Source: Candidatus Saccharimonadales bacterium
GTDB taxonomy: Bacteria > Patescibacteriota > Saccharimonadia > Saccharimonadales > SZUA-47
Direction: 5' to 3'
DNA: 64,000 nt
NCBI GenBank assembly: GCA_038211855.1
Contig: JBBQVE010000001.1
Coordinates: forward strand, 17,648-81,647
A program made the translations under genes and the position numbers. The notes beneath the pieces are model-generated. The model was given only the letters and a program-made list of their open reading frames with translations. It was not told the DNA's origin and searched no databases. Positions 1,015 through 46,047 of this stretch are shown piece after piece; the stretch's first letter is position 1, and every line of letters starts with the position of its first letter.

Positions 1015-1776
1015 TTATGGTCGCAGCGTGCCCGCAAAAACTTGCCACGCCAACAAGGATTTCGCGACAAGACTTAAGACGATGTAAACACGCTCGCCAT
1101 ACAGGTAATTTTTCCAGGGGCCGACCTTCTTATACTGCAGAACCATATTGAGCGCAAAGCAACTAAAGAATACGAAGATTGATACAAAAATCCAATAAAC
1201 AAAAGTTGGCGCGGCACTACCGTTATGGGCACTAAACCAGAAGTAAAAAGCGATAACCGCCCAAGGGATGATGCCAGCAAAAGTGCCGATGTTAAAGCTC
1301 AACCAGCTGGTTTGAGAAGTTGTCTGATTATGTACTTCCATCACGAGTCCCATAAGATTCATGAGAGCGGTCAGGCAGAAGATCATCGCGAGACTCACAA
1401 CATCATAAACACCTACTAATAGCGCGATAGCGACCATCATCGTGCTAGCCGAAAGTGCATATTCAAACCAACGGGTTTTATTGATGCCGAGCAGTAGATT
1501 TTTGTTATAGGTTTTATTGTAGATGGTTGCAATAAATAGGTGAGCGGCCGCGGACAGAAAAAAGAATGCGACGATAAGTGCGGGCAATGAGAGAGTAAAA
1601 AGTGTTTTGCTGGCCGGTAGTAACTTTTGTGTAGCGCTGTCGAAACGAAGATAGCTGCCGCTTATTGGAAGACGAAAGCTGCGACTCAGGGCCATAACTG
1701 CGAGTCCTTGTGCTGTGTGTAGTCCCGCCATAACGAAATTGAATTTTCTTAGGCCGCTCGTCGTAATTTTTTTCAT
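1015..1776 (-). CDS. Heliorhodopsin (7TM retinal protein, inverted topology family)
   Basis: 253 aa from the ATG at 1776; the ORF track begins at an in-frame TTG at 1782. From memory it aligns along its whole length to heliorhodopsin 48C12. NFVMAGLHTAQGLAVMALS..LPISGSYL corresponds to NFNRIAGVFHLLQMLAVLALS..LPMTGTYL. TRWFEYALSASTMMV corresponds to FRWVEYSLSSSVMIV. GIIPWAVIAFY corresponds to GIVPWIGLLIY. The C-terminus YKKVGPWKNYLYGERVYIVLSLVAKSLLAWQVFAGTL corresponds to YKGKGKWSNYLRGERAYIVLSLVAKSALAWQIFSGTL, including the Schiff-base lysine in SLVAKS. Confidence 0.8.
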   Translation of the reverse strand: MKKITTSGLRKFNFVMAGLHTAQGLAVMALSRSFRLPISGSYLRFDSATQKLLPASKTLFTLSLPALIVAFFFLSAAAHLFIATIYNKTYNKNLLLGINKTRWFEYALSASTMMVAIALLVGVYDVVSLAMIFCLTALMNLMGLVMEVHNQTTSQTSWLSFNIGTFAGIIPWAVIAFYFWFSAHNGSAAPTFVYWIFVSIFVFFSCFALNMVLQYKKVGPWKNYLYGERVYIVLSLVAKSLLAWQVFAGTLRP

Positions 1777-1842
1777 ATTCAAATAGTATCACAATCGACT
1801 TACGAGGGTCATGGAGCTTCAAATAATAAAGTATGCACATAC

Positions 1843-1870
1843 AAAAGCCCCATCATTTGATGGGGCTTTT
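1843..1870. terminator. Rho-independent bidirectional terminator
   Basis: The sequence AAAA-GCCCCATCA-TT-TGATGGGGC-TTTT forms a perfect 9-bp GC-rich stem with a 2-nt loop, flanked by an A-tract and a T-tract. It sits 5 nt downstream of the minus-strand tRNA-Glu and separates that tRNA from the heliorhodopsin gene start. Confidence 0.7.
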
Positions 1871-1874
1871 GTAT

Positions 1875-1951
1875 TGGTGATCCCGGCGGGATTCGAACCC
1901 GCGATCTCCTGGATGAGAACCAGGTGTCCAAGACCACTAGACGACGGGACC
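1875..1951 (-). tRNA. tRNA-Glu (anticodon CTC), CCA encoded
   Basis: The reverse complement is GGTCCCG-TC-GTC-TAGTGGTCTTG-GAC-A-CCTGG-TTCTCAT-CCAGG-AGATC-GCGGG-TTCGAAT-CCCGC-CGGGATC-A-CCA. It folds as a cloverleaf with a 7-bp acceptor stem, a Glu-type D-arm (3-bp D-stem), anticodon loop TT-CTC-AT and a T-loop TTCGAAT. Confidence 0.8.
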
Positions 1952-2091
1952 GTTGTTTCGTGCCGTAAAATCATATCATAACAGAGGCGGATTTGCTATT
2001 TTACACTAGTAGCACAGTGTGGCTGTAAGGATTCTTATCGCGCTCCCAGCAGAAATAATCGACAATACGCAACAGATTAGGAGTACAAAAA

Positions 2092-2268
2092 ATGAGAAGA
2101 AGATACTCAACGGGCGGAATTATTTATATCATTATAGGTGTGGTCGTGGCGAGCAATCGGGGCTACCTTACAGACTTGGGTTCGATCGGTCACATACTCT
2201 CTGCCCTGCTGGCAATCCTGTTATGGCCGCTCCTCTTGGTCGGCGTCAGTCTGCACCTAGCAATTTAA
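2092..2268 (+). CDS. Small membrane protein (58 aa), hypothetical
   Basis: An ATG at 2092 is preceded by AGGAG (2079-2083) with 8-nt spacing. The product MRRRYSTGGIIYIIIGVVVASNRGYLTDLGSIGHILSALLAILLWPLLLVGVSLHLAI has two predicted TM helices. It is below the ORF-track size cutoff. Confidence 0.4.
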   Translation: MRRRYSTGGIIYIIIGVVVASNRGYLTDLGSIGHILSALLAILLWPLLLVGVSLHLAI

Positions 2269-2308
2269 GGGCGACGAGCTTCTTAATAATTTCAATGTCA
2301 TCCCCTGT

Positions 2309-2689
2309 TTATGACTCGAGCTGTTTGAGATATTCAACGAGTTCGCGTGGGGTGATTTCGGCCTTGATAAGGTAGCCATCGGCTTGTTTTTCGATGCGTT
2401 CGCGGGTGCCTTCTTCTTGGTCGAGGTTGGTCGTAACGATAATCTTGGCTTTGATTTGCTTCGGACGATCCGGGCTGCGCAAACGGCGCAACACCTCAAT
2501 GCCGTTAATGCCGGGAATCATCAGATCTAGTAAGATGATATCGTAGATGTCTTTTTCGGCTTCAACAACCGCTGTATCGCCGTCCGGTGCCGTAACAACT
2601 TCATAGCCGGCAGTTTGCAAAGCACGAGTATACAGCTCGCTAATGAAGAATTCGTCCTCGATACATAAGATTTTGAGTTTCTGATCCAT
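2309..2689 (-). CDS. Single-domain response regulator (CheY-like receiver)
   Basis: 126 aa with the receiver motifs IEDE (acid pocket), IILLDLMIPG (phospho-Asp), VTTN and YLIK. The RBS AGGAG is upstream of the ATG. It lies 3 nt downstream of the histidine kinase gene. Confidence 0.8.
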   Translation of the reverse strand: MDQKLKILCIEDEFFISELYTRALQTAGYEVVTAPDGDTAVVEAEKDIYDIILLDLMIPGINGIEVLRRLRSPDRPKQIKAKIIVTTNLDQEEGTRERIEKQADGYLIKAEITPRELVEYLKQLES

Positions 2690-2692
2690 GCT

Positions 2693-4237
2693 TTATCTCC
2701 TGTACATGCTATGGTTCTTAATCCAGCCGTGTGCTCCCCTCATGATACCATCTTGACCCTGTGCTTCAGCGCCATGTCGCGCTTCATCATACTGCTCGAG
2801 GGTAAACGTGAAGATGCTGCCTTCGCCTTCTTTGCTGTTGACCCAAATATTGCCACCATGGGCGTTGACGAGTGCTTTGCAGAGATACAAGCCAAGGCCG
2901 GTGCCCCCGATCTGAACACGACTACGGTGACTACGGTAGAATTTATCAAATAACTTTGGTACCACACTGGCGGGAATACCGAGGCCATTATCTTGAACGC
3001 TCGTTTCAACCATACCATCGCGGCCAATTTTACTGGTAATGGTAATCTGTTCGGACTTGCCGCCATACTTAATGGCATTATCAACGAGGTTATTGATGAT
3101 TTCATGGACGCTGATACGGTCGGCGGCGACCAGTGGAATCGATGGATCAATCTCAAGAACTATATGCTTGCCATGGACTTGGGCACGCAGCTCAAGGTCG
3201 GCTACGGCAGAGGTCAGGATCTCTTTGAGGTCTTCCTTGTGCAGCGTCAGCGTGAGCTGATTCTCACCGATGCGGGCCACATTCAGGATATTACTCACAA
3301 AGGCCGTCAGTTGCTGGGCGCTGGCGTGCATCTTATGCATAAAATCTTTCAATTCAGGCGCCAAACCTGGGCCAAGCTCGTCTTCAAAGACTTCTATATA
3401 ACCGCGCATAATGGTGAGCGGTGTGCGCAGTTCATGCACGGCCATCGCGACAAAACTAATTTCTTGATCATCAGCCGCATACGATTCGGTGTGATCGAAG
3501 AAAACGAGGACTGACTCAACCTCACCAGCGCCCTTGCTATAACTGGCCGCCATATCGAACTGCTTCGTCGGGTTGCCATCTGTATCTACCAAACGCACAC
3601 GGTTCCAGGTAGTGCCTGCCTTCACAACATTCTTCTGACAATCTGACAACCACGTCTCATAAGTGAGCTCGCTTGGAAAACTCATGTTTAGGATATCATT
3701 GATGTTTTTACCGATTGAGGCTTGTCGCTTTTCGGCATCGATACCCAGATACACCACCGCCGCATCATTCATATAGTGCAAATGTGAGGCACTATCGACG
3801 GTTAATACTGGCAACGGAGTGGCATTTAACATCTTTTCGCCGCCTATGACGGCCGCTTGCGGATGTGGCTCCTGTTCTTGACTATGACCCGCTTTGCTGG
3901 CCATTTCATATACTTGGAGGGCCAAAACAGATACCATCTCACGGCCAAGTTTTATATGTTCGATATCAGGAGCTGGTGTAGCAGAAGTCTCACGACTGAC
4001 GTGTAAGATGGCCTGACGCAGATTTTTGAGTGGTTCGAGGGCGTAGGATGTCGTGGCTGCGGACATAAAATATGCACAGACAAACCCAATCGTGATCGAG
4101 CCGACCGCTAACGGAATGTTTGGAACATGCAGATGTCTGCCTGCGAGCCACACGACGAGAGGAACGAGCGAGACAAGCATAAAAGCCATCCACAGTCGGC
4201 CAATGAGGGCTTTTTGGACGGCTTTTAAATGGTCCAT
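2693..4237 (-). CDS. Membrane sensor histidine kinase (HisKA + HATPase_c)
   Basis: 514 aa with an N-terminal TM segment. The H-box is AMAVHELRTPLTIMRGY. The N-box is NLVDNAIKYG, and a G-box DNGLGIP...GGTGLGL is present. Confidence 0.8.
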   Translation of the reverse strand: MDHLKAVQKALIGRLWMAFMLVSLVPLVVWLAGRHLHVPNIPLAVGSITIGFVCAYFMSAATTSYALEPLKNLRQAILHVSRETSATPAPDIEHIKLGREMVSVLALQVYEMASKAGHSQEQEPHPQAAVIGGEKMLNATPLPVLTVDSASHLHYMNDAAVVYLGIDAEKRQASIGKNINDILNMSFPSELTYETWLSDCQKNVVKAGTTWNRVRLVDTDGNPTKQFDMAASYSKGAGEVESVLVFFDHTESYAADDQEISFVAMAVHELRTPLTIMRGYIEVFEDELGPGLAPELKDFMHKMHASAQQLTAFVSNILNVARIGENQLTLTLHKEDLKEILTSAVADLELRAQVHGKHIVLEIDPSIPLVAADRISVHEIINNLVDNAIKYGGKSEQITITSKIGRDGMVETSVQDNGLGIPASVVPKLFDKFYRSHRSRVQIGGTGLGLYLCKALVNAHGGNIWVNSKEGEGSIFTFTLEQYDEARHGAEAQGQDGIMRGAHGWIKNHSMYRR

Positions 4238-30804: not shown

Positions 30805-32250
<1,446 letters not shown>

Positions 32251-32251
32251 T

Positions 32252-32482
32252 ATGATTGGCGAAGGCTTCGCCGGCATTGATCCAGCATCTCTGGCGGATG
32301 TTGAACGCATGAGCGCTGAGGTGATCACGCCCTCTATTGACCGTAACTTCGGTGATCAAAGTGCTGAACAGTTCAACGCAGGCATTGATGTAGTTAAGCC
32401 GGTAACTTTAAATCGTTTGCCAGGCGAAACAGCAGTGCAAGCTCATGTGAGGCTGCAGGCCGAAAAAGGAACGAACGAATGA
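32252..32482 (+). CDS. Small acidic ORF (76 aa) between atpD and atpC, hypothetical
   Basis: The ATG at 32252 is 2 nt after the atpD stop, and AAGGA lies about 15 nt upstream. Its stop overlaps the atpC start (ATGA at 32479-32482). Confidence 0.3.
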   Translation: MIGEGFAGIDPASLADVERMSAEVITPSIDRNFGDQSAEQFNAGIDVVKPVTLNRLPGETAVQAHVRLQAEKGTNE

Positions 32483-32941: not shown

Positions 32942-34228
32942 TTATTTTGTAATAATGTTGAGAAATTGTTCGATACGGCGGATGTCAGCTAGGACATTTG
33001 AACGACTTGCATCAAACAGGGTGAGTTCAAGTACGGGATCACCGCCGTGCTTGGCAAAGGTGCACTTCTCCCCGATCTCTTTACGAATACGCATGGTCTG
33101 AAGGGACTTCAGAGCCTGGACTTTGTATACACCCTGTATTTTTTCTAATTTGCCCTCTTTTTTGGCATAAAACTGTAGGACAGCAGTGTATCCAAGGACT
33201 TTCTTAGGGATTTTCGGCACTTCAGGTATGCGCACGAGCATGTCGTTGAAAGAGTGGTCAATGCCAAAGGACAGCTCATACATCTCATGACGGAAGCCAC
33301 CCATTCGTGGACCCAGTTCAATCACCTTCCAATTATCTTCAGTTCGAATAAGCTCAATGTGGCAGGTTGTGCTTCGCATTCCGAGTGCCTTTACCGCCCT
33401 CACCGCCGCCGCTTGGGCATCCTCGGTATGGCTGGAATTTAGCTGCGTTGGCGTCATACGCATGTAGCCAAAGAAGTCGTCAAAACCAACCTCTCGGCCG
33501 GTTTTTACATATACCATCGGCGTGAAGTACATTTGACCGACATTATCAACGTAGACATCTATCGAATACATGTCACCTTCCATGAATTCTTCAACAAGTA
33601 CTTTCGCTTCACCACGGCCGCGCTTCTTCTTATAAATCTGGTCTATCTTTTTGATGGTGGTTTTTACTACTGCCTCGAGTTCTTCACGGTGATAACAGAT
33701 ACTCACGAGCAGTGAGGCAGCGAGACCCGAAGGTTTGACGACCATCGGATAGCCAACCTCTTTTTCGATTTCGTCGATCGTTTCTTTCGTGTCATCATGG
33801 ATTACTAGAAAACGAGGTGCAATCGACTTGTCATAGCGACGTAATATACGGCGCATTTTAGTTTTTTCCGTCGTCCATTCCAGCGATGTTTCAGTCGGTG
33901 TCGTGCAAGCTGGTATAAATGGAATCACTTTTCGCAAATAAGGAACATTCCCATCGCTTGAACATGTCGCAGCCAGTATTTCATCAGTATATGGACGAAG
34001 ACTTGCCTGCAAGGTGTCCGTATTTTGAAAATCCGTACGTACAATTGTGACATGCTCAGCTAACTCTTGCCACTCAGCAACAGGGTATTCATCATCTACG
34101 AGTAAAAGCGCTTCATAAATGCGACCTTTTTGCTCAGAGTACTTTTCAAGTGCTCTTTGTTGGTACTTCGAAAAGCCGTTCACAAAAAGGTATCTAAAAC
34201 GTTGGTTTGTTAGCGGTCTTGAAGGCAT
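32942..34228 (-). CDS. ATP-grasp enzyme, L-amino-acid-ligase-like
   Basis: 428 aa. ATP-grasp motifs are present: PMVVKPSGLAAS, EEFMEG, IELGPRMGG. Size and motif pattern resemble BacD/RizA-type ligases; that assignment is inference. Confidence 0.5.
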   Translation of the reverse strand: MPSRPLTNQRFRYLFVNGFSKYQQRALEKYSEQKGRIYEALLLVDDEYPVAEWQELAEHVTIVRTDFQNTDTLQASLRPYTDEILAATCSSDGNVPYLRKVIPFIPACTTPTETSLEWTTEKTKMRRILRRYDKSIAPRFLVIHDDTKETIDEIEKEVGYPMVVKPSGLAASLLVSICYHREELEAVVKTTIKKIDQIYKKKRGRGEAKVLVEEFMEGDMYSIDVYVDNVGQMYFTPMVYVKTGREVGFDDFFGYMRMTPTQLNSSHTEDAQAAAVRAVKALGMRSTTCHIELIRTEDNWKVIELGPRMGGFRHEMYELSFGIDHSFNDMLVRIPEVPKIPKKVLGYTAVLQFYAKKEGKLEKIQGVYKVQALKSLQTMRIRKEIGEKCTFAKHGGDPVLELTLFDASRSNVLADIRRIEQFLNIITK

Positions 34229-34364
34229 AAGAATAACAAATTAATGAGTATATTATACAATAAAAGATTACAGATAGCAACAGTTTAGCTGAAGCTCTTA
34301 CTGCGTACTATATACGGTTGTCCCTATCTTTAGCAAGCATACTTTGTGATGTAGAACACACCTT

Positions 34365-35276
34365 CTATAGAGAGATCAAATATTCAGCTACTTTTTCGGT
34401 AATGTAATCGGCAGCTCCACCCATACTTGTAGCTGTTAAACCAGGTTTACTATTAAGCTCGACCAACTTAATGCCGCGCTTGGTATTCGCAAAATCGGCC
34501 GAAATATACCGGGCATCAGCTTTGAAGTAACTATCAATCTCGAGGGCAAGCGCTTTAATATTGGTCGGAATTTCCTCTGGGTATAAGAGGCGCTGACTGG
34601 CACCCTGGGACATATTGGCTTTCAGCTCACCTTTTGCCGGTATACGGAGCTGGCCACCAATAACTGAACCCCCGGCAATCAGAACTCGTATATCATGAGG
34701 TCCCTCTACGAGACCTTCAACATCTGCAAAATCATCAATAAATTCCTGTACCATTAACGGAAACCGGTCAGGCACTTGGTCATATATTTCGCTTTTTTTG
34801 CCGATATAAATCTGGTGACCACCATTGCCTTCAGGCTCTTTCACTACAACCATTTCACCCACTAGCTTGGTGAATGCTTCTTTTACCTCGTCGAAATCAC
34901 GGCAGATAAACGACAGTGGCTGGTATCTTGCGAATAGCTCATAGGTTTTATTTTTGTCGTTGGTTATTTCGTGGATATATTTTGGATTAATAACAAGTAC
35001 GTCTTCATCTGTAAAACCGCCTTTTTCAAGTATGACATCAGCTCTCACATCATTTACTTTTTTGAAATCAGCAACCTCGCTCATTTCATCGACGGTATAG
35101 GCAGTCGAAAATAGACCGTCGCCTTTGTAGGTAGTCTTATCAGTTGCAAAATAGGCTCCAGCACCGAGTCTCTTCAGTGATAAAATTAGTTGTTGATACG
35201 ACTCTTTATAGTACTGGTGATTAAATGGATAGCCCTCTTTGTCGATTGTCCTACAGAATATAACGATGTTTTTCAT
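34365..35276 (-). CDS. ATP-grasp ligase, RimK/GshB-like (paralog 1)
   Basis: 303 aa with GEMVVVKEPEGNGGHQIYI, QEFID, HDIRVLIAGGSV and VELNSKPGL. It is alignable end-to-end with the adjacent gene. Confidence 0.5.
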   Translation of the reverse strand: MKNIVIFCRTIDKEGYPFNHQYYKESYQQLILSLKRLGAGAYFATDKTTYKGDGLFSTAYTVDEMSEVADFKKVNDVRADVILEKGGFTDEDVLVINPKYIHEITNDKNKTYELFARYQPLSFICRDFDEVKEAFTKLVGEMVVVKEPEGNGGHQIYIGKKSEIYDQVPDRFPLMVQEFIDDFADVEGLVEGPHDIRVLIAGGSVIGGQLRIPAKGELKANMSQGASQRLLYPEEIPTNIKALALEIDSYFKADARYISADFANTKRGIKLVELNSKPGLTATSMGGAADYITEKVAEYLISL

Positions 35277-36196
35277 GCGAGGCTTACCAAGTAATCTGCG
35301 AGGCCGCTCATGAAACTGCGGGCCAATTCACCCGTTGATTCTCTGAATAAGCCAGGCTTATTATTAAGTTCCACCATTAACCACCCTTGCTTTCCTTTGG
35401 CAAAATCAATCGCATAGTAGCGCGGTAAAGATTCGAGTTGGCTGTCAACGTCCTGGACTATGTCAAGAACTTCCTGTGGAATAGCAGTTTTGTGAATAAG
35501 CTTTTCACTCCCGCCCAGAGAGACGTTTGCGTGTAATTTTCCTTTTGCGGGTTCACGAATCGTAGCACCGAGTACAGTTCCACCTGCAACTAACACGCGT
35601 AAATCGTGTATACCGGCCGCTAATCCTTCTATGCCGCCGCTCATATCGATAAATTCCTGCACAATAAGTGGAAACGTTTCATTCACAGGGATTTGTATCT
35701 TTTCTTTAAGGTCGATGTAAACCTGGCTTCCGCCGCTCCCATATGGGTTTTTGACTACAACCATTTCGCCTGTCATTGCGTTTATTGCTTGTGATACTTC
35801 CTCGATCGAGTGACACGTTACAGATTTTGGTTGGTAGCGTTCAAACTTTTGATAGGTAAGAACCTTATCGTTCAGAATTGGATGTAGCCGATGGTCAGTA
35901 ACGACTTTGATATCTGTACCCTCAAATCCACCTTTATCAAAAACAACATCGGCATGGATTGGGCCGGTTAGAATAAAGTCATTCACTTGGCTGACCTGAT
36001 CGATTGTCCATGCCTTAGAGAAATTTCCGTTGCCCACATAGGAATCATTGCCAGTTACAAAAAAAGCTTGAGCGCCGGCCCGCTTCATCGCAAGGAGGTA
36101 CTCCTGGTAGGAGTAAAAATAGAGATCGCGCACTGAAAAAGGGTATTTATCGGTTGCCACATTGCGCACAAAAAAAGCAATAGTTTTAGTCTTCAC
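35273..36196 (-). CDS. ATP-grasp ligase, RimK/GshB-like (paralog 2)
   Basis: 307 aa with GEMVVVKNPYGSGGSQVYI, QEFID, HDLRVLVAGGTV and VELNNKPGL. It overlaps paralog 1 by 4 nt. Confidence 0.5.
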   Translation of the reverse strand: MKTKTIAFFVRNVATDKYPFSVRDLYFYSYQEYLLAMKRAGAQAFFVTGNDSYVGNGNFSKAWTIDQVSQVNDFILTGPIHADVVFDKGGFEGTDIKVVTDHRLHPILNDKVLTYQKFERYQPKSVTCHSIEEVSQAINAMTGEMVVVKNPYGSGGSQVYIDLKEKIQIPVNETFPLIVQEFIDMSGGIEGLAAGIHDLRVLVAGGTVLGATIREPAKGKLHANVSLGGSEKLIHKTAIPQEVLDIVQDVDSQLESLPRYYAIDFAKGKQGWLMVELNNKPGLFRESTGELARSFMSGLADYLVSLA

Positions 36197-36245
36197 AATT
36201 AGATTATAATACGGGAAAGCCGTCTAAACTCCTAAAAGGATATAC

Positions 36246-37535
36246 ATGCATCAGAATCATCTAAATTGTTTGTTTGAGTTATGGCAGAAGACGTCTGCAC
36301 CGATGTTTCATACTAGCGAATTTTGGCCAACGTTCACAAACGATGCAGTTCAAGATTTTTTGCGAGCGAAGACCGACGAGCCCCTCTCTAGTTCGCCTAC
36401 AAATAGGGTTGTTTTACTTGAAAACAGACAGAAAATCGAAGCATTTTTGGCAGAAATTAAAACGTTGTCAGAAGAAAAGTACGCCTGTTGGCAGATATAT
36501 ATCGATTTTGAGTCTGCTCGGCTAGCCGAGCTGGATCTGATTTTTGAAGCTACCGATGAAGCCAAAAGCCAGCAGCTGAATGACCAGTTGTTTGGCGTGC
36601 CAGCTGAGTTGCATGAAGCCGATGCCCTCTCTTACCTACTATATAATGTGCAAGCTTTAGAGCCAGTTTCCACGTTGGCAGCAGACGCGCGCCAGCGCTT
36701 AATTGAGGCCTGGTCAGCGGTGGAGCCAAACGTAAACATAAAAGAACTATTTACTGCCTACGATGACTACCGTGTCCAGCTCAAGCCCTACATAGCAGAA
36801 AACTTTGCCTTTCTTGATGAGCTGTTAGCTAGCCATAGTGACATGCTGACGACAGAAGAAACAGTTGAAGCACTTGATGCAGCACTCGAACACATGGAAT
36901 GCAATTCGAGCGGCTGGACGGCAGCAATTCGCGATGGTGCGCCAAACGCTTTTATTGATTACGACAAAAAGAATATCGTTTTGCCGCACGGCCGACCATA
37001 TTCCAAGACACATTTGCGGGGGTTGATCATTCATGAGATTGGTGTGCACGTGACCCGTTCAGTGAATGGCGAGCAGAGCTTAGAAAAACTGGCGGCTGTC
37101 GGTTTGCCGGGCTATGGTCCAGCCGAGGAAGCGATGGGCACGTTATTCGAAAACGCACCGCGCGAGCATTTTGAACTTATGCACAGCCTCGTGGCGTTTG
37201 CAATCATAAATTTTGCATCGCACAGTCACTCCTTCCGTAAGGTCCATGAGCTCACCAAAGCACTGCTCATTTGCCTCGACAAAAAAACCGAGGAACAGCT
37301 TGTACATTACACGCCAGATTACGGCAGAATGGCTTTCTCGCGCTGTATACGCATGATGCGACTCGGTACTGGCGTAATCGTTGACCGTTCGACGACCAAG
37401 TATTGGCGTGGTCTTGGCATGCTGAGAGATTATTTCGAAATCCACGGAACCTCAAACCAAGTGATTGAAGAATTTTTACTTGGCAAATATGACTGCCTGA
37501 AGCCCGCCCAACTCAAACTTATTAAAAAACACTAA
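36246..37535 (+). CDS. Putative zinc metallopeptidase with HExxxH motif (DUF1704 / QEGLA / MATCAP-like)
   Basis: 429 aa. HEIGVH is encoded at 37032-37049 and an EEAMG element lies about 28 aa downstream. It is divergent from the RimK-like pair across a 49-nt spacer. Confidence 0.4.
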   Translation: MHQNHLNCLFELWQKTSAPMFHTSEFWPTFTNDAVQDFLRAKTDEPLSSSPTNRVVLLENRQKIEAFLAEIKTLSEEKYACWQIYIDFESARLAELDLIFEATDEAKSQQLNDQLFGVPAELHEADALSYLLYNVQALEPVSTLAADARQRLIEAWSAVEPNVNIKELFTAYDDYRVQLKPYIAENFAFLDELLASHSDMLTTEETVEALDAALEHMECNSSGWTAAIRDGAPNAFIDYDKKNIVLPHGRPYSKTHLRGLIIHEIGVHVTRSVNGEQSLEKLAAVGLPGYGPAEEAMGTLFENAPREHFELMHSLVAFAIINFASHSHSFRKVHELTKALLICLDKKTEEQLVHYTPDYGRMAFSRCIRMMRLGTGVIVDRSTTKYWRGLGMLRDYFEIHGTSNQVIEEFLLGKYDCLKPAQLKLIKKH

Positions 37536-39454
37536 TCGATTCGGACAGGAACTAATTCGACGCTGACACGGCCGTCTTTGCCGAGGCCGTAATACTCATA
37601 GCTTGGGCTAGAATTGCGCATCATAAAGGCATATAAACGAGCGCGGATTCTACGGAAGACGTGAATACCATGAGTCTTTGGAATAATGATTCGCTCGCGG
37701 CCGACGTACACAATCCAGTCGTCCATAGTATCATCTGGTGTCAAATCGTGGCGCGTGGCAATCTGTGCGATAACCCTCTCGACATTCGGCTCTTCCAAAA
37801 AACCAAAGCGAGCCTTGATGGACAGTAGCGAGGTCTCTTTCTGATGGTTATTCTCAAACGAAGTGATTTCGAGGCGCTTTGGTCCGCGTTCGTATGGACG
37901 TTTCGTCTGCACCACCGTCAAAATAATGAGATGTTGCGGCATATGTTTGAACTTTTTAAAAAATAGTTCCACAAGCGGTGGGACCGGGGAATCCAGGTCG
38001 ACCGGATTATGGACGGTGAGCACCAACAAATTGCTGGAAACTCCGGCAGGTTGGGCTTCTTTGATCTTCAACAAAGACCGCATCGTCATGCTGGAATGGC
38101 CAAGAAAGGTTCGACGAACATGGCCTTTGCCCCACTGCCACGTCCCCATCACAATAAACAGCAGCAAGCCAATTGTTAGTGGCACATAGCCCCCTACGAA
38201 TACTTTGAGCGAGTTGGCCGCTAAAAAACATAAGTCAATGAGCGCAAAACTGCCAAAGAGTAAGAAGGCAGGAAACTTCTTCCACCCCCACTCAAGTCGC
38301 GCGACTTGCAATACAGAAACTGCCGTAATCAGCATAACCGCCGAAACCGCCAATCCATATGCGGCCGCTAAGTTACTACTCGTTTTGAAGGACACAACCA
38401 GAGCCACGCAGCCAATATATAGTGACCAATTAATAAACGGCAGATAAATCTGACCTTCGTGCTCTTGGTGTGTATGATGGATTTTGAGACGAGGCAACAA
38501 TCCCAGTGCGATGCCCTGACTGGCGAGGCTAAAGGCACCCGAAATTAACGCCTGGCTGGCAATGACAGTAGCGAAAGCGGCCAATATGACCATCGGATAC
38601 AAGAGCGTGTGCGGCACCATACTAAAGAAGATATTACTATCGGCAACTGGTTTGTGAGAAAGCAGATAAGCCCCCTGCCCAAGATAACTCAACATCAGAC
38701 AAGGCATCACCACCGTGAACCAACTCAAACGAATCGGCGAGCGTCCAAAGTGTCCCATGTCTGCATAGAGTGCTTCGCCACCCGTTACGACCAGCATAAC
38801 GGAGCCGAGAATTATCAAGAGTTCATAGGGTTTGGTTCGAATAATAAATTGAATGGCTTCGAGTGGATTGAAGGAGCGCAAGATTGACGGCTCAATAATC
38901 AGCTGACGGATACCAAGCGCGGCAATTGTAATAAACCACAGCAAAATAATCGGTCCAAAAACTTTACCTATCACAGCCGTGCCTTTGCGTTGGACCAGGA
39001 AAAGCCCTGTCAAAATAGCGATAGTAATCGGAATAACAAAGCTCGCCAGCGCCGGTGTGGCTATCTTCAAACCTTCAACGGCTGAAAGCACGCTGATGGC
39101 GGGCGTAATAATGCCGTCACCAAAGAGCAATCCGGCACCAAAAGTGAGGACGAGCGCCAAAACTGCTGCAGTCTTCACTTTGTGTCGTCGCAGCAGTGCA
39201 ACGAGAGCAAAAACGCCGCCTTCGCCGTCGTTATCAGCCCGTAAAACAAAGATCACATATTTAATAGCAACAATCAAGATGAGCGCCCACAAAACAACAG
39301 AAATCAGGCCAACGACATTGCTTGGGCTGTACTTGCCACCGCGTCCAAAGAAAATCTCGTTAATGGCATACAGCGGACTGGTACCAATGTCGCCATAGAC
39401 GACACCGAGAGCGCCAAAGGCCAGAACGAGGAGTGGAGTTTTTTTGTTTGACAT
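37532..39454 (-). CDS. kup: KUP/HAK/KT potassium uptake transporter
   Basis: The ATG at 39454 (MSNKKTPLLVLAFGALGVVYGDIGTSPLY...) gives about 641 aa. The upstream 107 codons of the track ORF are Cys-rich and unconserved. Confidence 0.8.
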   Translation of the reverse strand: MSNKKTPLLVLAFGALGVVYGDIGTSPLYAINEIFFGRGGKYSPSNVVGLISVVLWALILIVAIKYVIFVLRADNDGEGGVFALVALLRRHKVKTAAVLALVLTFGAGLLFGDGIITPAISVLSAVEGLKIATPALASFVIPITIAILTGLFLVQRKGTAVIGKVFGPIILLWFITIAALGIRQLIIEPSILRSFNPLEAIQFIIRTKPYELLIILGSVMLVVTGGEALYADMGHFGRSPIRLSWFTVVMPCLMLSYLGQGAYLLSHKPVADSNIFFSMVPHTLLYPMVILAAFATVIASQALISGAFSLASQGIALGLLPRLKIHHTHQEHEGQIYLPFINWSLYIGCVALVVSFKTSSNLAAAYGLAVSAVMLITAVSVLQVARLEWGWKKFPAFLLFGSFALIDLCFLAANSLKVFVGGYVPLTIGLLLFIVMGTWQWGKGHVRRTFLGHSSMTMRSLLKIKEAQPAGVSSNLLVLTVHNPVDLDSPVPPLVELFFKKFKHMPQHLIILTVVQTKRPYERGPKRLEITSFENNHQKETSLLSIKARFGFLEEPNVERVIAQIATRHDLTPDDTMDDWIVYVGRERIIIPKTHGIHVFRRIRARLYAFMMRNSSPSYEYYGLGKDGRVSVELVPVRID

Positions 39455-39586
39455 GTGTTCGTTTCGAGGGTTTCTTAAACACTCATTATAATGTGCTTCA
39501 AGCGTTTTGCCAATCAGTTTAAGGTGATATAGTTGCGAGTTAGCAAAAAACGTTTTATGCTGAAGGTACTTAAAGAGGGTTACACA

Positions 39587-40309
39587 ATGAGTCAGCGTTC
39601 CAAGCTCGGTGTTCTGGTGGCAGAATTTTTCGGTACGGCCTTGCTCGCCAGTGCGGTTTTGGCAGAGGCAAATGCAGCCGGTCTCGTCGTAAACAAAAGT
39701 TGGTTTGTAGCGGCAACAGCAGGACTCACCATCTCGCTCCTGACGCTTACTATCGGTAAGCTGTCTGGTGCACATGTAAATCCAGCAATCACGATCGGTC
39801 TCTGGACTTTGCGCAAAGTTGAAACAGCGACCGCAGTTGCCTATGTGGCTGCCCAGCTGTTGGGTGGCGCAGTGGCGCTAAGCTTGTTTCAATACCTGCA
39901 AAACGATCTTATACAGGGCAAAAATGTTGCCTTTGATTGGCGGATATTCGTTGCCGAAATGCTTGGTACGATGATCTTTGGTTTTGGCGTCGCTGCTGTT
40001 GTTGTTCAGAAACTTAACGGTTACAAAGCTGCGTTCGCAGTCGGTACTTCGTTTATGCTTGGTGCGATCGTCGCGCAGACGGCGAGTAGTGGTTTTTTGA
40101 ACCCAGCTGTGGCACTCGCTAACAATAGTTGGAGCTGGGTGTATGCAGCTGCGCCAGTGCTCGGATCGGTCGTCGGTATGAATGTCTATGACTTTTTCAT
40201 CGCCCCAGAAAGCAGTTTTAAATCTTCTATTAGGCTCACACCCATCAAGCCTGTGTCGCCCGTTGTATCCAAGAAAACCACCAAGAAAACCAGCAAAAAG
40301 AAGCGCTAG
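39587..40309 (+). CDS. MIP-family channel (aquaporin / glycerol facilitator)
   Basis: Two NPA boxes (HVNPAITIG and LNPAVAL) are present, and AGAGGG lies 9 nt upstream of the ATG. There is a Lys-rich C-terminal tail. Confidence 0.8.
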   Translation: MSQRSKLGVLVAEFFGTALLASAVLAEANAAGLVVNKSWFVAATAGLTISLLTLTIGKLSGAHVNPAITIGLWTLRKVETATAVAYVAAQLLGGAVALSLFQYLQNDLIQGKNVAFDWRIFVAEMLGTMIFGFGVAAVVVQKLNGYKAAFAVGTSFMLGAIVAQTASSGFLNPAVALANNSWSWVYAAAPVLGSVVGMNVYDFFIAPESSFKSSIRLTPIKPVSPVVSKKTTKKTSKKKR

Positions 40310-43300
40310 TTATATCTTATCGTCGAGTAAGTCTTGCTCAAATTTTTCGATGCCGTGTATATCTTGTGAGTAGGCCGTAGTGTCAGGAAAATCTGTAGCT
40401 ATGATTTTCTTCCAGGCTTTTTGAATCAAAGTAGACATACGTGCAATTTCTTCGGAAGTAGGAGTATAGCTTTGGATAAGGTGTTTGATATCGGGTGATT
40501 CAACATAGACCATTTGACATTCGATAGCTGACCTGCCGGCCAATCGCGGTGTTTGGCTTGCTAGTAGTGCATAAAAAATAAGCTGGCTACGGTGACGCCA
40601 TGCTTTGACCGCTTTACTTTGATCATTCGTAAACAGACTAGTCAGTGGTTTGCCCGTTTTGTAGTCAGCAATGATGATTTTATTCGGATCTTGGCCATCA
40701 ATGCGATCTAGTTTACCGAGTAGTCGCACACCGCCTTCGAGCGTGCAGATGAGTTTTTGCTCACTATTACTTTTTGGTTGGAGCGTATAGCCATATGTCT
40801 CAAACAACGTACCAAGTGTTCTTTGACCGAGTGGCAAATAACGCTCGAATTCGTCAGAGAGGACCTGTTGCTCAACTAAGGCATCTTCGTAGGCTTGGAA
40901 GACCTCATCCAAATCAAATGCATCTTTGTTGACAAGCTTTTGAGCATATTCCAACGCAGCGTGTATGGCCGTACCGTAGGATTGACTCATGGTTTTTGCT
41001 TCTGGTAATCGCAGCAGATCGCGTTCTTTAAAATAGCCTGGACCGCCGACCGTCACATCCAAAAAATTTAAAAGTGCCGTCGGGCTGAGTGTGAATTCTT
41101 CGAGTACTGGTTGCAATAAAAAACTTTCTTTAGCATGACCAAGTTGTGGCCATGATAACGCTGATTCTAAGACTTTTTTGGGGTCGCCTGCATTTTGTAG
41201 CTCAATGCGTTTGGGTGGCAGAACTGCTCGAACAAATGGTGCGCTCAGCAATTCTTCGCCGAGTACGTTACTGTAGAAACTACTCACAAATAAAGAATGT
41301 TTGGCGCGCGTTGCGGCAACATAAAATAGTCGCGCGTAGTCATCGGCATCTTCGCCATAGGCTTGCAAAGGCAGGTTAACCGGCGACTTGCGGCCGCCGC
41401 GGTTTGGCTTCCAGTATTCTTCATTTGCATCAACTACGAAAACGGTGTCAAATTCAAGACCCTTGGCTTTATGCACGGTCAAAAGTTGCACGGCATCATT
41501 GCCACTTACGTACACGGAAGAGTCAGTGATGAGCCGCTTGTTTTCACGGTTCACATGTACGAACTTCATAAAGTCCGTTAAAGTCACTTCATTTTTAATA
41601 GAAAATTCGCGCGCCAAATCGGTCAGTAATCGGAGGGCCGAAAGCGCTTCTAAATAAGCTGAAGTTGTCGCCTTGTTTTCAAAGAAATGATTGCGTATTG
41701 GACTTGTAAACTTCTCATACGGTCGCAAGCCGACAATGTATTCGATCATCAAACTGAGCGGATTCGTAGCAGCGGCGCGCGCAAGCTCCATGAAGTCTTT
41801 CATAAGTTCTACAATTTGTGTATCCTCTGAGGCTAACAGGCTTTTAACCCAGTGCGGACGGTATCGATTGTCGATTGCCAGTTGCCACAATGCTTCTGTC
41901 GATACGCCCCACAAAGGCTCGCGTAGTAGCTCACTCAAAATGACGTTAGATGCAGCCTCGTTACCATTGTTAAGTTCAATGAGCAGATCACAGACCAGCA
42001 GTACTTGCACGACGACAGGATGGTTTAGCGCGTTATTTTGACGTTCATAACGAATCGCTACATCCAACGCTTGCAGTTGTTCAGCGAGGCGCAAGAGACT
42101 TTCGTGACCGCGCGCCAACACAGCAATCGTTCCGCTTTTTTTATGTGCAACAGCAATGGTGTTGGCAATAGCACTCAGTTGATGCTCGCGCGTGGGGTAC
42201 GAAAGATGCTGTATTGTTCCTTGCTCTGTTGGTTCTTTTTTGGCGATGAGGTTCTTGATGATGTCGGCTTCACGTTTGGTGAGCCGGTCATTTATTTGCT
42301 CGGCCAACAGATGTGCGGTGTTCAAAATCGCCTGACTAGATCGATAGTTTTCGACGAGTACAATCGCCTTTTTTATCTTGTAAAACGAGCGGAAATTGAG
42401 CATGTTGCTAAGTTCGGCGCCATTAAACTTAAAGATCGATTGATCGTCATCACCGACCGCCATCAGGTTCGGTTGACCATTGCTGGTGTGATGGTCTGCC
42501 ACAAGGTGGGCGAGGCGCAGCTGTGCCGGATTCGTGTCTTGAAATTCATCGATCAACACGTGCGTAAACTGTTCCTGCACATCACTGCGCAACTCAGTAT
42601 TTTGTTCCAACTGACTAATGACTTCAACAATCATATCCGAATAATCGTAGTAGCCACGAGTGTGCAATGTGTCGCGGTAGAGTTTGTAGACGTGTGACAG
42701 CTCGAGCCACCACTGGTTTATCGATCGTTCAGCATGCATGCCCTTGACGCCATCAACAGATTTTACAAAGCGTTGCTTCCATTTGCTCGTGTTCGTGGCT
42801 TTGCCTGTATCAGCATCTAATGCAATTGCTTGTTTCAAACTTTCTACTAAAACACTGCGTAAAGACAAAAGTGGTGTAATAGCTGTATCAATTGACTGCT
42901 CCGGCAATGCTTCAATATTTGTTAATAATCCATATAATTTTTTGTAACTCAGTGTTTCGCTCAAAATGTCGACGACATCAGCTTCAATAAGATCAATATA
43001 GTCCAAATTTACAGAAATGATTGTCTCGAGTTTTTCGGGCGTTAATCCTGCCTCTTTAGTGAGTTTGAGAGCGTTTTGAACCGCTGTGGTGCCGGTCAGC
43101 TCACCTGCAAACCGTTTGGCTAAGGGATTATCGAGTGGAAGCGACATCAGGATTTCTTGAATCACTTCCAGCTGTACCGTATCAGGCACTGTTCCAAGTC
43201 GAGCCCCATTCCAAAAATAATCTGGATAGTCATTCATGATGTCAGCCGCAAAACTATGAAAAGTCCGCACGGCGACTTTATAGGCGGCCGGGCCAATAAA

Positions 43301-43537
43301 ATCAAATAGGCGGTCGCGCATATTGGTGGCCGCCTTGTTGGTAAACGTCAAACAGAGGATATTTTGGGGGCTCGTATCGGTGTTTTGCAGAATATATGCG
43401 ACGCGAACGCTTAAAAGCTGTGTTTTACCTGTTCCTGGCCCGGCGATAACCAATAAAGGGCCCTCGATATGTTCGACGGCTGCGCGTTGTTCGTTATTGA
43501 GTTCTTTTAGTGCTTTTTCATAAGGAGTCATTCTCAT
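40310..43537 (-). CDS. UvrD/PcrA-type SF1 helicase fused to a C-terminal PD-(D/E)xK (RecB-family) nuclease (AddA-like)
   Basis: 1075 aa. The Walker A motif is AGPGTGKTQ and helicase motifs run throughout. The C-terminal motif RIDGQDPNKIIIADYKTGK matches the RecB/Cas4 nuclease signature. Confidence 0.7.
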   Translation of the reverse strand: MRMTPYEKALKELNNEQRAAVEHIEGPLLVIAGPGTGKTQLLSVRVAYILQNTDTSPQNILCLTFTNKAATNMRDRLFDFIGPAAYKVAVRTFHSFAADIMNDYPDYFWNGARLGTVPDTVQLEVIQEILMSLPLDNPLAKRFAGELTGTTAVQNALKLTKEAGLTPEKLETIISVNLDYIDLIEADVVDILSETLSYKKLYGLLTNIEALPEQSIDTAITPLLSLRSVLVESLKQAIALDADTGKATNTSKWKQRFVKSVDGVKGMHAERSINQWWLELSHVYKLYRDTLHTRGYYDYSDMIVEVISQLEQNTELRSDVQEQFTHVLIDEFQDTNPAQLRLAHLVADHHTSNGQPNLMAVGDDDQSIFKFNGAELSNMLNFRSFYKIKKAIVLVENYRSSQAILNTAHLLAEQINDRLTKREADIIKNLIAKKEPTEQGTIQHLSYPTREHQLSAIANTIAVAHKKSGTIAVLARGHESLLRLAEQLQALDVAIRYERQNNALNHPVVVQVLLVCDLLIELNNGNEAASNVILSELLREPLWGVSTEALWQLAIDNRYRPHWVKSLLASEDTQIVELMKDFMELARAAATNPLSLMIEYIVGLRPYEKFTSPIRNHFFENKATTSAYLEALSALRLLTDLAREFSIKNEVTLTDFMKFVHVNRENKRLITDSSVYVSGNDAVQLLTVHKAKGLEFDTVFVVDANEEYWKPNRGGRKSPVNLPLQAYGEDADDYARLFYVAATRAKHSLFVSSFYSNVLGEELLSAPFVRAVLPPKRIELQNAGDPKKVLESALSWPQLGHAKESFLLQPVLEEFTLSPTALLNFLDVTVGGPGYFKERDLLRLPEAKTMSQSYGTAIHAALEYAQKLVNKDAFDLDEVFQAYEDALVEQQVLSDEFERYLPLGQRTLGTLFETYGYTLQPKSNSEQKLICTLEGGVRLLGKLDRIDGQDPNKIIIADYKTGKPLTSLFTNDQSKAVKAWRHRSQLIFYALLASQTPRLAGRSAIECQMVYVESPDIKHLIQSYTPTSEEIARMSTLIQKAWKKIIATDFPDTTAYSQDIHGIEKFEQDLLDDKI

Positions 43538-43566
43538 CTATTGTAGCGCGCTGACACTATTAGAAG

Positions 43567-46047
43567 CTACCCCGTCGATGGCTCAGTGTAGAGTCTTTCG
43601 ATAGTAACATTCCACGGATCATCGTCAACGATTGCATCGACCAACTCATTGAATAAGTCGTAGTTTCTCAGTTTTGAGGCGCAAAAAAGCTGGATGACAT
43701 CGAGTCGGTTACCGGTAGGTAACTTTGCCTGAAGCGTCCTAGCAGCCTCAAGGGCGGTTTCAAAATCACCCGCCAAGAGCTTATGCATTATTGGCTGCAA
43801 TTTTTTACGAGGCACCTGCATTTTGTCAGCAAGTTTCTCGGTGATATGGCGACGAACTTTCGGATGTGTCGCACCATCCTCGTAAAGGTTATACAGACCA
43901 TCAAAATCACCATTCAACAAGTAGATATCAGCAAGGAACGCACGTGATTTTCTCTGATTTTTATAGTCATCAAACTTGCCTAATTCGTAAGCATTAATAA
44001 GTTGCTCCATTACAGTAGAGTCGTTCGAATTATATATGTCATATTGCTTCATGAACCTGCTAGCTATACCCCATTCGCCGGCACTAACAGCCCACTGCAT
44101 ACCGATTTCGCACATTATTTCACATACGTAGGGGACATCGCTCATCCAAGTGCCCCTGGAACGTCGCCACATGCCGGCGAATGGGACCAAAGGGTCATCT
44201 TCTGCAACGGCTGCCAGCATCATCATGACCGGTTCGTATGATTTTAAGATCTCCATAAATTCATCTGCGTATGGGCCTTCAAATTTTTCGAGCTCCGTTA
44301 AATCCGGATGTTTAATTTTGAGCTCAACTAAGCGATCATCACCTTCAAAAAAACTTCTAATCATGCGGTTTTTTATGACGTTTTCAGTATCAAAATCCGG
44401 ATGACGATGGGCGACCTTAAGGGCATCTGCAAAATCAATGTAACGCATATCGTCGATGAGCATTTCGGTCAAAAGTTCATGGCCAATTTTGCTATTCGGA
44501 TAGTGGTCTATGAACTGACGGACGACTCGTTCACTTAAACCGCCAATTCTCGCGGCAGGTAGCTGGGCGATGAACTTAAGGGTATGCGTCTCTAATGAAG
44601 CACCATTCGTTAACTGTTCGAGTGCTGCCATCATCATAGAATGTTTGAGCGGACTCCCACTGCGACCCACCATATCAAAAAACGCACACCACAGATCGTT
44701 CTTATCTTCCCCGGCATCATGTAGCAAATTCAGCTCATTGTATGCGGTTTCTATGTCAGCATCACTCGGTTCTTCATTGCAGTTTATGCGGTAGCTCAGT
44801 TCTTCTAAAGCACTGTGTACTAATGTTTCCGGCTCTAAAGTGTCGGCAAGCAGATCGGTCGGAATCAAACTTGTAATATGGCGGAGGATATTCGATGTCA
44901 CGGTCATTTTATCCTCAAATGTTGGCTCATACTGCACGACGTTTTCCAGTCCACCGAAGTTGCCGTAATTGATTTCATAAGCCACAACTTCGCCTTTCAT
45001 CGTGATCGATAGGTCGCTGCCATAGAGAGCCTGATGGCCCAGTCCACGGTGAAATTCTGTAACTACTCTTTCTGCATCTTCTCTGTCGACGCCGATTTGT
45101 TCGAGCTTTTTCATAATCCAATCAAAGGAATGTTCGGTAGCACCGAGTGCAAAGTTTATCGGACCACCTTCAGCTGCGACGCGGGCGTATGAACCAAAGT
45201 AGTTGCCACCGCCACCGATACCACGGAGGTTCCAGTGCTTCATTCGGAGATTGTCGTCGATAATTGGAATCGGCTCTTTCAGCGCTTCGACAATGACGCC
45301 GTTGCCATCATCAATTAAAGTATTGGCATGGGCTACTGCCGCATTTAGCTCGTCACCAGCGAAGAACTTCACTCCCATTCCGCGGGCACCCCGCTTCGGT
45401 TTAACGACGATACCTCCAGGGCTATTTTGCTTCGTGAATAGTGCCAATTTAATTGCTGTTGGTCTTCTATCCGATTCAAATCCTATACTCGGAATAAAGG
45501 GGACTTGCCCCGCTAGTAGCTTTTTTGCCTTCGCTTTGTCACCCATTTCGGTGTATGTCTCGGCATCCATGGCGACCGGGATGTTATGCGATTCAAGTAT
45601 CGCTTTGCTCTCCTCATTAAAAGGATCCGACAACACGAAGTCGATCCGTACTGGCGCATCAAAGTGACCGATGCAAATTTTGCCAGCGGCATTCAACGTG
45701 GCGCCATGATTCGCCCACAATTTTGCATGGCGTGCTTCAAGGTCGTGGGCCGCCCAAGGAAACAGAATGACCACATTCGGCGCGTCTTCGCCTGCTTCAC
45801 GTAAGCGGGCAGCGGTAATTCCGAGAAATTCCTGTCCCGAAAAGCTACTATGGGCTATACCGATTGTCGGTTGCGATGGATCGATGTCGGTTGAATTCGT
45901 ATGATCGGTGGTTGTGAGAGGTATGAGTGGAGCAAAATCTTCGACAACCCCATACGCTGTACGCAGTTCCCGGATGGCTGGACGGAGGTAGTCCATATCC
46001 AACTTGTTAATTACTTCCGCATGAAAGGAGTCTGCTTGCAAGGACAT
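43567..46047 (-). CDS. Large ATP-grasp-domain fusion protein (N-terminal ATP-grasp, ~370-aa alpha-helical C-terminal domain)
   Basis: 826 aa. The ATP-grasp P-loop GGIVVKPKRGARGMGVKFF is followed by GVIVEALKEP and then a helical domain with no recognised motif. Confidence 0.4.
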   Translation of the reverse strand: MSLQADSFHAEVINKLDMDYLRPAIRELRTAYGVVEDFAPLIPLTTTDHTNSTDIDPSQPTIGIAHSSFSGQEFLGITAARLREAGEDAPNVVILFPWAAHDLEARHAKLWANHGATLNAAGKICIGHFDAPVRIDFVLSDPFNEESKAILESHNIPVAMDAETYTEMGDKAKAKKLLAGQVPFIPSIGFESDRRPTAIKLALFTKQNSPGGIVVKPKRGARGMGVKFFAGDELNAAVAHANTLIDDGNGVIVEALKEPIPIIDDNLRMKHWNLRGIGGGGNYFGSYARVAAEGGPINFALGATEHSFDWIMKKLEQIGVDREDAERVVTEFHRGLGHQALYGSDLSITMKGEVVAYEINYGNFGGLENVVQYEPTFEDKMTVTSNILRHITSLIPTDLLADTLEPETLVHSALEELSYRINCNEEPSDADIETAYNELNLLHDAGEDKNDLWCAFFDMVGRSGSPLKHSMMMAALEQLTNGASLETHTLKFIAQLPAARIGGLSERVVRQFIDHYPNSKIGHELLTEMLIDDMRYIDFADALKVAHRHPDFDTENVIKNRMIRSFFEGDDRLVELKIKHPDLTELEKFEGPYADEFMEILKSYEPVMMMLAAVAEDDPLVPFAGMWRRSRGTWMSDVPYVCEIMCEIGMQWAVSAGEWGIASRFMKQYDIYNSNDSTVMEQLINAYELGKFDDYKNQRKSRAFLADIYLLNGDFDGLYNLYEDGATHPKVRRHITEKLADKMQVPRKKLQPIMHKLLAGDFETALEAARTLQAKLPTGNRLDVIQLFCASKLRNYDLFNELVDAIVDDDPWNVTIERLYTEPSTG

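Follow-up and report, generated by a model that had tools for sequence, protein, structure and literature searches.

A Saccharimonadia gene cassette pairs three ATP-grasp ligases with a divergent MATCAP-family metallopeptidase

Ligase/hydrolase cycles, in which one enzyme adds residues and another removes them, are represented by TTL(L)/MATCAP, RimK/RimB and CphA/CphB; in the first of these, ATP-grasp tubulin ligases (TTL/TTLL) are opposed by human MATCAP/TMCP1 (KIAA0895L) and TMCP2. MATCAP was recognised as an enzyme in 2022, and we know of no function for any of its numerous prokaryotic relatives. Here we describe a four-gene locus that resembles these cycles. It is located at positions 32942-37535 of a 64,000-nucleotide stretch of DNA, referred to as a whole as the window, from a Candidatus Saccharimonadales bacterium (contig JBBQVE010000001.1, positions 17,648 to 81,647 of the forward strand). 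The locus encodes three ATP-grasp ligases and, divergently from them, a metallopeptidase of the MATCAP family. Saccharibacteria are ultra-small epibionts unable to synthesise amino acids. With four soluble enzymes, and with the ligases encoded beside an opposing peptidase, the cassette constitutes a compact bacterial test case.

GshB extends gamma-Glu-Cys, RimK extends a Glu tail, and L-amino-acid ligases (LALs) act on free amino acids. In the Pseudomonas RimK-RimB(-RimA) system, as appears to be the case in the window, a RimK-type ligase is encoded together with a dedicated peptidase that undoes the ligase's addition. The erasers are different: Pseudomonas RimB belongs to the retropepsin-like aspartic endopeptidases, whereas that of the window is a MATCAP-fold metallopeptidase. 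Compared to the GshA to GshB pathway and to the LALs BL00235 and BacD/YwfE, the window contains no gamma-glutamylcysteine ligase, its equivalog scores are far under the cut-offs, and a dedicated, predicted carboxypeptidase is added. RimK also makes free poly-alpha-glutamate, a reaction that is stimulated by the partner protease RimB (PMC11957791; modulation also PMC10092738). TMCP1/MATCAP and TMCP2 are carboxypeptidases that strip C-terminal Tyr or Glu residues one after another. The TMCP enzymes are HExxxH gluzincins with an EEG motif as the putative third ligand, and the E281A mutation inactivates human MATCAP (PMC10499314).

The three ligase genes lie on the minus strand and span a total of 3,255 bp. 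The promoter-proximal gene (35273-36196) encodes a 307-aa ligase of the GshB/LysX/RimK type with a GTG start. It is followed by the gene of a 303-aa ligase of the same type (34365-35276), with a 4-nt overlap, GCATGAAA (ATGA, comprising a TGA stop and an ATG start). Downstream of a 136-nt spacer (34229-34364), the LAL-like gene (32942-34228) encodes a 428-aa protein that is the constant core of the cassette. Of the sigma-70-like sites in the region, the best (TTGCTA-17-TATAAT, 34280-34252) lies in this spacer, on the same strand; it is a consensus match only, and the site total is not above that of shuffled sequences. A 49-nt divergent intergenic region (36197-36245) is common to the ligase operon and to the peptidase gene on the plus strand (36246-37535), which encodes a 429-aa HExxxH metallopeptidase without a signal peptide. 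An open reading frame (ORF) scan reproduces exactly the four reading frames, lengths, overlap and divergent spacer listed in a first-pass annotation made from the sequence alone. The GTG start at 36196 is backed by 46 homologues that align over 99% of the length; judged by this alignment, the start is real and the public gene call of 271 aa, which begins at Met37, is truncated.

The 429-aa protein belongs to the MATCAP family at the level of fold and motif, as the first-pass annotation had proposed. Pfam PF08014 (MATCAP, formerly DUF1704) matches it at 5.9e-6 and 25.9 bits, just under the cut-off of 27 bits and over profile positions 112-218 only, and a precomputed PF08014 match is present in most homologues of its clade. 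Human MATCAP is the best match in a profile search of PDB sequences, with HEIGVH..R aligned to HEIGTHYLR and PAEEALG to PTEEGLA. The AlphaFold model is confident (predicted local distance difference test, pLDDT, 93.1; predicted template modelling score, pTM, 0.90) and displays the gluzincin-type MATCAP catalytic fold. Residues H263, E264 and H268 of the HEIGVH motif (H263-H268) as well as E294 and E295 of the EEAMG motif (E294-G298) are invariant in 24 homologues, and so are many Arg and Lys residues of the C-terminal half. The protein is located outside the narrower QEGLA equivalog. NCBIfam TIGR02421 matches it at 7e-8 and 32.1 bits against a cut-off of 338.65, and its motif is EEAMG (consensus EEA.G), not QEGLA; the QEGLA membership suggested by the earlier reading has to be given up. 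For comparison, a true TIGR02421 member from Ensifer scores 343.9 bits. By analogy with the family, the peptidase is predicted to be a carboxypeptidase.

Close homologues of the peptidase are few. Only 24 were found among 5.8 billion clustered proteins, at 38-66% identity. A filter-free profile search returned 15 representatives below 1e-30, followed by a gap and then by 517 at <=1e-10 and 1475 at <=1e-3, and this gap in the scores indicates a small clade isolated within a large superfamily. The close relatives all come from metagenome-assembled genomes (MAGs) of Saccharimonadia/Saccharimonadales, which assigns the window to a Saccharimonadia (Saccharibacteria, CPR) genome.

The 303- and 307-aa ligases share 45% identity from end to end (E 4e-94), and the motifs GEMVVVK.P.G.GG.Q.YI, HD.RVL.AGG.V and VELN.KPGL noticed previously are present in both. 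The broad Pfam RimK domain matches them at 5.1e-15 (56 bits, 303-aa) and 6e-13 (49 bits, 307-aa), above its cut-off of 21 bits. Both fall under all NCBIfam thresholds for RimK, GshB, MptN, CofF and LysX. The RimK family TIGR00768 gives 52.9 bits for the 303-aa ligase and 58.4 bits for its paralogue against a cut-off of 143.4, and the RimK family NF007764 gives 22 bits against 331; NF009110 (PRK12458, a GshB subfamily) is among the best NCBIfam matches. The small ligases show no Pfam match to Rimk_N (PF18030), which the canonical RimK of an oral Saccharibacteria locus (L008) matches at 6e-31, although an N-terminal alpha/beta domain is predicted in their models. Neither a glutathione synthetase equivalog score nor a GSH-S_N domain was found in them. 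Their nearest solved sequences are the Pseudomonas and E. coli RimK, and their identity to the canonical RimK of L008 is ~22%. In structural comparison GshB matches best and the leading folds include LysX/ArgX and RimK, with scores clearly above those of the maturases of ribosomally synthesised and post-translationally modified peptides (RiPPs). The small ligases are thus members of the GshB/LysX/RimK structural group, yet belong to none of its defined families.

Across 45 family members, the two window paralogues among them, there is no variation at the residues equivalent to K100, K141, E178, D187, R189, R203, N213, D248, E260 and N262 of E. coli RimK. The pattern is the same with the canonical RimK of L008. 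Since the ATP- and Mg-binding residues are invariant, both paralogues look active. Among the residues that bind the Glu tail in RimK (PMC10092738), the equivalents of R8 and S14 are mostly kept, while those of R64, R211 and R216 are not. The Arg residues of the FRSNLHRGG motif are not conserved, and the amino-acid specificity therefore cannot be read off.

A neighbour-joining tree separates the small ligases into two old clades, A (the promoter-proximal 307-aa type) and B (the 303-aa type), and the order A-B-LAL is constant wherever both are present. Clade A occurs alone in L003 and L004 and clade B alone in L002, and three copies are found in L005 and L046. Because the clades are old and their order is fixed, the pair represents an ancient duplication. 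The description of the two genes as clear tandem duplicates holds for their identity and adjacency, but the duplication is not recent.

The 428-aa protein is an ATP-grasp enzyme (Pfam ATP-grasp_4, 1.2e-21, 77 bits). LAL_C2 is weak in it (15.8 bits against 29.4), while many of its homologues carry a precomputed LAL_C2 match. Its best solved relatives are the LAL BL00235 (3vot, 1.7e-9) and BacD (3e-6), and weak matches to Ddl and pseudomurein ligases are seen in NCBIfam. More than 1000 homologues are known, mostly from Saccharibacteria. The catalytic residues are intact in the families of all four cassette proteins. The assignment of the small proteins as RimK/GshB-type and of the third as LAL-like thus agrees with the Pfam matches and solved relatives. 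None of the outcomes that had been named beforehand as contrary to this picture was observed: the peptidase does not fall into an unrelated family, its metal-binding residues do not vary, and the ligases do not classify as housekeeping Ddl or GshB.

To find related loci, a genome collection was scanned with the peptidase alignment, which gave four full-length relatives (L002-L005). Three loci (L043-L045) were added through LAL-like homologues and one (L046) through a metagenome scan. The trio of LAL-like gene, one to three small ligase genes and divergent MATCAP-like gene is present in 9/9 loci, the window included, and the divergent peptidase/ligase arrangement is kept in all nine. An all-against-all comparison of flanking genes found none common to the window and L002-L005 outside the trio. 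Recurrence in eight other loci is far beyond chance, and the unrelated flanks indicate that the trio travels as a unit; further cases are indicated by cross-matching of the three homologue tables. The two small ligase genes have a GC content of 0.425 (34001-36000), compared to 0.46-0.52 elsewhere in the window. This low value, together with the unrelated flanks of the sister loci, suggests that the cassette moves between genomes. Between the window and the sister loci the LAL-like protein is 64-66% identical and the peptidase only 39-44%. The LAL-like gene stands alone or in tandem copies in about 20 loci. In none of the recovered loci do the window-type ligases or this MATCAP-like clade occur in its absence.

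A second type of cassette is built around the same core. In a large group of Saccharibacteria whose LAL-like gene is orthologous at 52-57% identity, one or two small ATP-grasp genes precede the LAL-like gene. A Peptidase_S51 protein takes the place of the peptidase, in many cases with the divergent orientation known from the window (L039 5180-9320, L041 6066-9377 and L042 5149-9320; also L047, L052, L054, L056, L057 and L069). The S51 proteins match PepE/cyanophycinase weakly (E 1e-5 to 1e-9), with a GxSAG motif in 2/3 inspected. Two kinds of ligase occur in the sister cassette, singly or together: a stand-alone enzyme with matches to the cyanophycin synthetase ATP-grasp domain (TIGR02068, 6e-57) and to NAGGN synthetase (3e-51), and an enzyme of the RimK family. 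From these matches the S51-type cassette looks like a split, all-ATP-grasp cyanophycin-like system. Its architecture and its logic, synthesis enzymes with an exopeptidase for acidic peptides, would be those of the window, which lacks both the serine S51 peptidase and the CphA1-type ligase. No S51 gene, cyanophycin synthetase or cyanophycinase was found in the window, where the ligases match TIGR02068 at 7e-4 to 9e-4 only; both features occur in the sister cassette. In the S51-type loci the LAL-like gene is usually followed by DUF192 and a small membrane protein, which are absent from the window. The conserved 38-aa ORF of these loci was considered as a carrier and rejected, being a hydrophobic membrane peptide without an acidic tail. 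DUF192 and 'p162' are membrane or secreted proteins, likewise without an acidic tail, and were also rejected.

We classified 92 loci and counted co-variation where the LAL-like gene has at least 2.5 kb of upstream sequence. The MATCAP-like peptidase occurs only with window-type ligases (9/9), and the S51 peptidase only with ligases that resemble the G domain of cyanophycin synthetase (7/7). The peptidase and ligase types co-vary strictly around a constant LAL-type core. For some Saccharimonadia MAGs, a 2026 preprint lists genes of 'cyanophycin synthetase' and of S51 dipeptidase E but describes no cassette, and our literature search found no report that ties MATCAP relatives to ATP-grasp ligases or describes the cassette. 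What is new here is a three-ligase cassette whose peptidases are swappable and co-vary, together with the wide spread of the LAL-like gene in Saccharibacteria.

The link between DUF1704 and RimK-type ligases that the first-pass annotation had invoked extends beyond the nine loci of this clade. In 24 oral Saccharibacteria loci a four-gene operon is located downstream of dnaJ (L008 7056-12510; L009-L016, L018, L020-L032 and L038). Its products are a MATCAP-like protein of 525 aa (Pfam 1e-20), an ATP-grasp_3 protein of 455 aa, a 502-aa fusion of ATP-grasp with a RimB-type PF05618 domain, and a canonical RimK; two different candidate erasers are thus found beside a single RimK. We rejected the 455-aa protein as an orthologue of the LAL-like enzyme, as hhalign gave no significant match; it is only analogous. 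MATCAP-like, RimB-like and RimK genes also occur together in L036 and in three DPANN loci. The link is not universal: ATP-grasp neighbours are absent at the MATCAP-like loci L006, L019, L033 and L035.

The same two families meet again in proteobacteria. On an Ensifer adhaerens replicon (NZ_CP121309.1, L127 4423-7643) the gene of a true QEGLA protein (343.9 bits) is followed after a 9-nt gap by that of a GshB-subfamily ligase (NF009110/PRK12458, 451 bits). The 721-aa QEGLA protein carries the MATCAP domain in its C-terminal half (Pfam 1e-88), and its N-terminal 340 residues have no family match. The gene table of this record distributed with PLSDB lists no features at the pair. As in the window, a MATCAP/DUF1704 peptidase directly adjoins a GshB/RimK-type ligase; the window differs in its EEAMG motif, its divergent rather than co-directional genes, its LAL-like third ligase and its second paralogue. 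The TIGRFAMs comment on TIGR02421 reportedly mentions a RimK-related neighbour, and we are aware of no function for this QEGLA and GshB-like pair.

Taken together, these results make it highly likely that the ligases and the peptidase of the cassette form a functional pair. For its chemistry we tentatively favour one reading, by analogy with the families and at slightly less than even confidence: the cassette would make and break peptide bonds at a C-terminal carboxylate, acting on a free, probably acidic, peptide or poly-amino acid. The LAL-like enzyme would supply the seed, a dipeptide or oligopeptide, by joining two free amino acids, and the pair of GshB/RimK-type ligases would then use ATP to add residues, probably Glu or Asp, to the C-terminus of the seed. 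The divergent metallocarboxypeptidase may take residues off the same C-terminus and thereby set the length, recycle amino acids or make primers. In free form and probably acidic, the resulting oligopeptide or poly-amino acid could serve the epibiont as an amino-acid store or counter-ion. We infer the sequence of the reactions, which amino acids are used, that the acceptor is a free peptide and that the peptidase acts as a carboxypeptidase.

A free peptide is favoured because, in the recovered loci, the window-type ligases and their MATCAP-like clade occur only together with a LAL-type enzyme, a class that works on free amino acids. The sister cassette, with its CphA-like ligase and S51 peptidase, points the same way, since both are typical of free-polymer or dipeptide metabolism, as does GshB, the best structural match, since it extends a dipeptide at the C-terminus. 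Free poly-alpha-glutamate is made by RimK itself, with a stimulating protease partner (PMC11957791). No acceptor protein is encoded nearby, which also argues for a free product. Extended to Saccharibacteria as a whole, this would mean that they make an unrecognised intracellular oligo- or poly-amino acid, a functional analogue of cyanophycin or poly-alpha-glutamate, using stand-alone ATP-grasp enzymes, namely a LAL-type seed enzyme with interchangeable elongating ligases, and matched exopeptidases, S51 in most lineages and here of the MATCAP fold. We regard this extension as speculative and rather unlikely.

Several points weigh against a free-peptide product or limit the evidence for it. The proposed chemistry is drawn from family likeness at 15-25% identity, and the nearest characterised relatives also act on protein tails (S6 for RimK, LysW for LysX and tubulin for MATCAP). 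In other Saccharibacteria and in DPANN archaea the MATCAP-like gene adjoins a canonical RimK and a RimB-type protease, the S6 polyglutamylation set. With the positions of R211 and R216 not conserved, Glu specificity is not to be assumed. The number of small ligases varies from one to three and either clade may be absent, a poor fit to a fixed stepwise pathway. The counts of 9/9 and 7/7 come from phylogenetically related loci and are not independent, and the LAL-centred retrieval biases the sample.

The first alternative is a protein tail, for example at the C-terminus of S6, to which the RimK-type ligases would attach Glu or other residues and which the MATCAP-like enzyme would trim, in the manner of RimK/RimB in Pseudomonas and of TTL(L)/MATCAP on tubulin, with the LAL-like protein as an accessory or a third writer. 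This is possible, though on balance unlikely. It is consistent with RimK of Pseudomonas and E. coli being the closest solved relatives that the small ligases have, and with the presence of LysX/ArgX and RimK among the top folds. MATCAP/TMCP enzymes trim acidic protein tails (PMC10499314), and in bacteria RimK and RimB are established as a writer and its eraser (PMC11957791, PMC7343187). In the 24 oral loci, L036 and the three DPANN loci, a MATCAP-like gene shares an operon with, or adjoins, a canonical RimK and a RimB-type retropepsin domain. However, no target gene accompanies the cassette in the compared loci. A tblastn search with E. coli S6 found no match in the window or the recovered loci, and in the loci compared no conserved ORF for a carrier protein or a precursor lies within or next to the cassette. 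The ligases score under the RimK family cut-offs and have no recognisable Rimk_N, and neither the invariable LAL-type link nor the S51/cyanophycin-synthetase-like sister cassette has an obvious role in tail editing. Of the writer/eraser pair that the first-pass annotation proposed, the pairing of ligase and peptidase is upheld; the protein tail is not supported, with no S6, carrier or precursor gene travelling along in the loci compared.

Small-molecule tailoring appears improbable. Here the ligases would glutamylate a cofactor or an envelope precursor, as MptN and CofF do on methanopterin and F420 or the D-Asp ligase does on peptidoglycan precursors, and the peptidase would be the hydrolase. 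In NCBIfam the 303-aa ligase matches MptN (2.6e-10) and CofF (2.9e-8) as well as or better than S6 ligase (8.6e-5), and the Ddl and pseudomurein-ligase matches of the LAL-like protein are in line with such a role. All of these matches are, however, far under the family cut-offs, cofactor or murein genes are not conserved beside the cassette, and MATCAP-family enzymes are known solely as peptide carboxypeptidases.

That independent housekeeping enzymes are neighbours by chance is very improbable. It could account for the solitary LAL-like gene of many genomes and for the MATCAP-like genes of Vulcanimicrobiota, Anaerolineae and some archaea, which have no ATP-grasp neighbours. It does not fit an order and orientation kept in 9/9 loci with unrelated flanks, the strict co-variation of peptidase and ligase, or the independent pairing of the same families in oral Saccharibacteria, DPANN and Ensifer. 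A graspetide-type RiPP, with the two ATP-grasp paralogues as macrocyclising enzymes of a ribosomal precursor peptide, like MdnB/MdnC, and with leader removal by the metallopeptidase, can be practically dismissed: no conserved small ORF was found in the spacers between the LAL-like and ligase genes or in the flanks of five loci (window, L002-L005), the ligase and LAL-like reading frames overlap in L002 so that no spacer is left, ligase copies vary from one to three, and GshB, LysX and RimK outscore the RiPP maturases structurally.

If Saccharibacteria do make such an intracellular oligo- or poly-amino acid, the cassette would represent, in a prokaryote and encoded as an operon, what the ligase/MATCAP cycle is in eukaryotes, with a storage or osmotic peptide as its substrate instead of tubulin. 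It could reveal an ancestral role of the MATCAP fold and the origin of ligase/carboxypeptidase cycles such as those of tubulin tyrosination and glutamylation. A dedicated system that polymerises and releases amino acids would be new to the physiology of Saccharibacteria, and might serve storage, osmotic counter-ions or the buffering of host-derived nutrients. The swapping of ligase and peptidase modules around a constant LAL-type core provides a useful rule for predicting matched enzyme specificities.

A defence-island reading was also considered and rejected, PADLOC giving no match for any of the four proteins.

The cassette is located between the ATP-synthase operon and the genes of a Kup K+ transporter and a MIP aquaporin (37532-40309). 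The Kup gene is convergent to the MATCAP-like gene, and their stops overlap by 4 nt. In L043-L045 the MATCAP-like gene adjoins a fusion of trehalose-6-phosphate synthase and phosphatase (about 1465-3690). These neighbours of the osmotic-stress type may be due to chance, or may hint that the product is an osmotic counter-ion. The longest Kup ORF (37532-39775) comprises 747 aa, and the gene call on the matching contig 640 aa with a start near 39454; the 5' extension, which reaches into the region upstream of the divergent aquaporin gene, is probably not translated. On the other side of the cassette, in the ATP-synthase operon, atpD and atpC are separated by 228 nt, an unusually wide gap that is filled by a 90-aa ORF (32210-32482). 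Beyond the aquaporin gene, at 40310-46047, two large, adjacent minus-strand ORFs encode proteins of 1075 and 826 aa. UvrD-type helicase motifs are present in the first, which suggests that the two are an AddAB/RecBCD-like helicase-nuclease pair.

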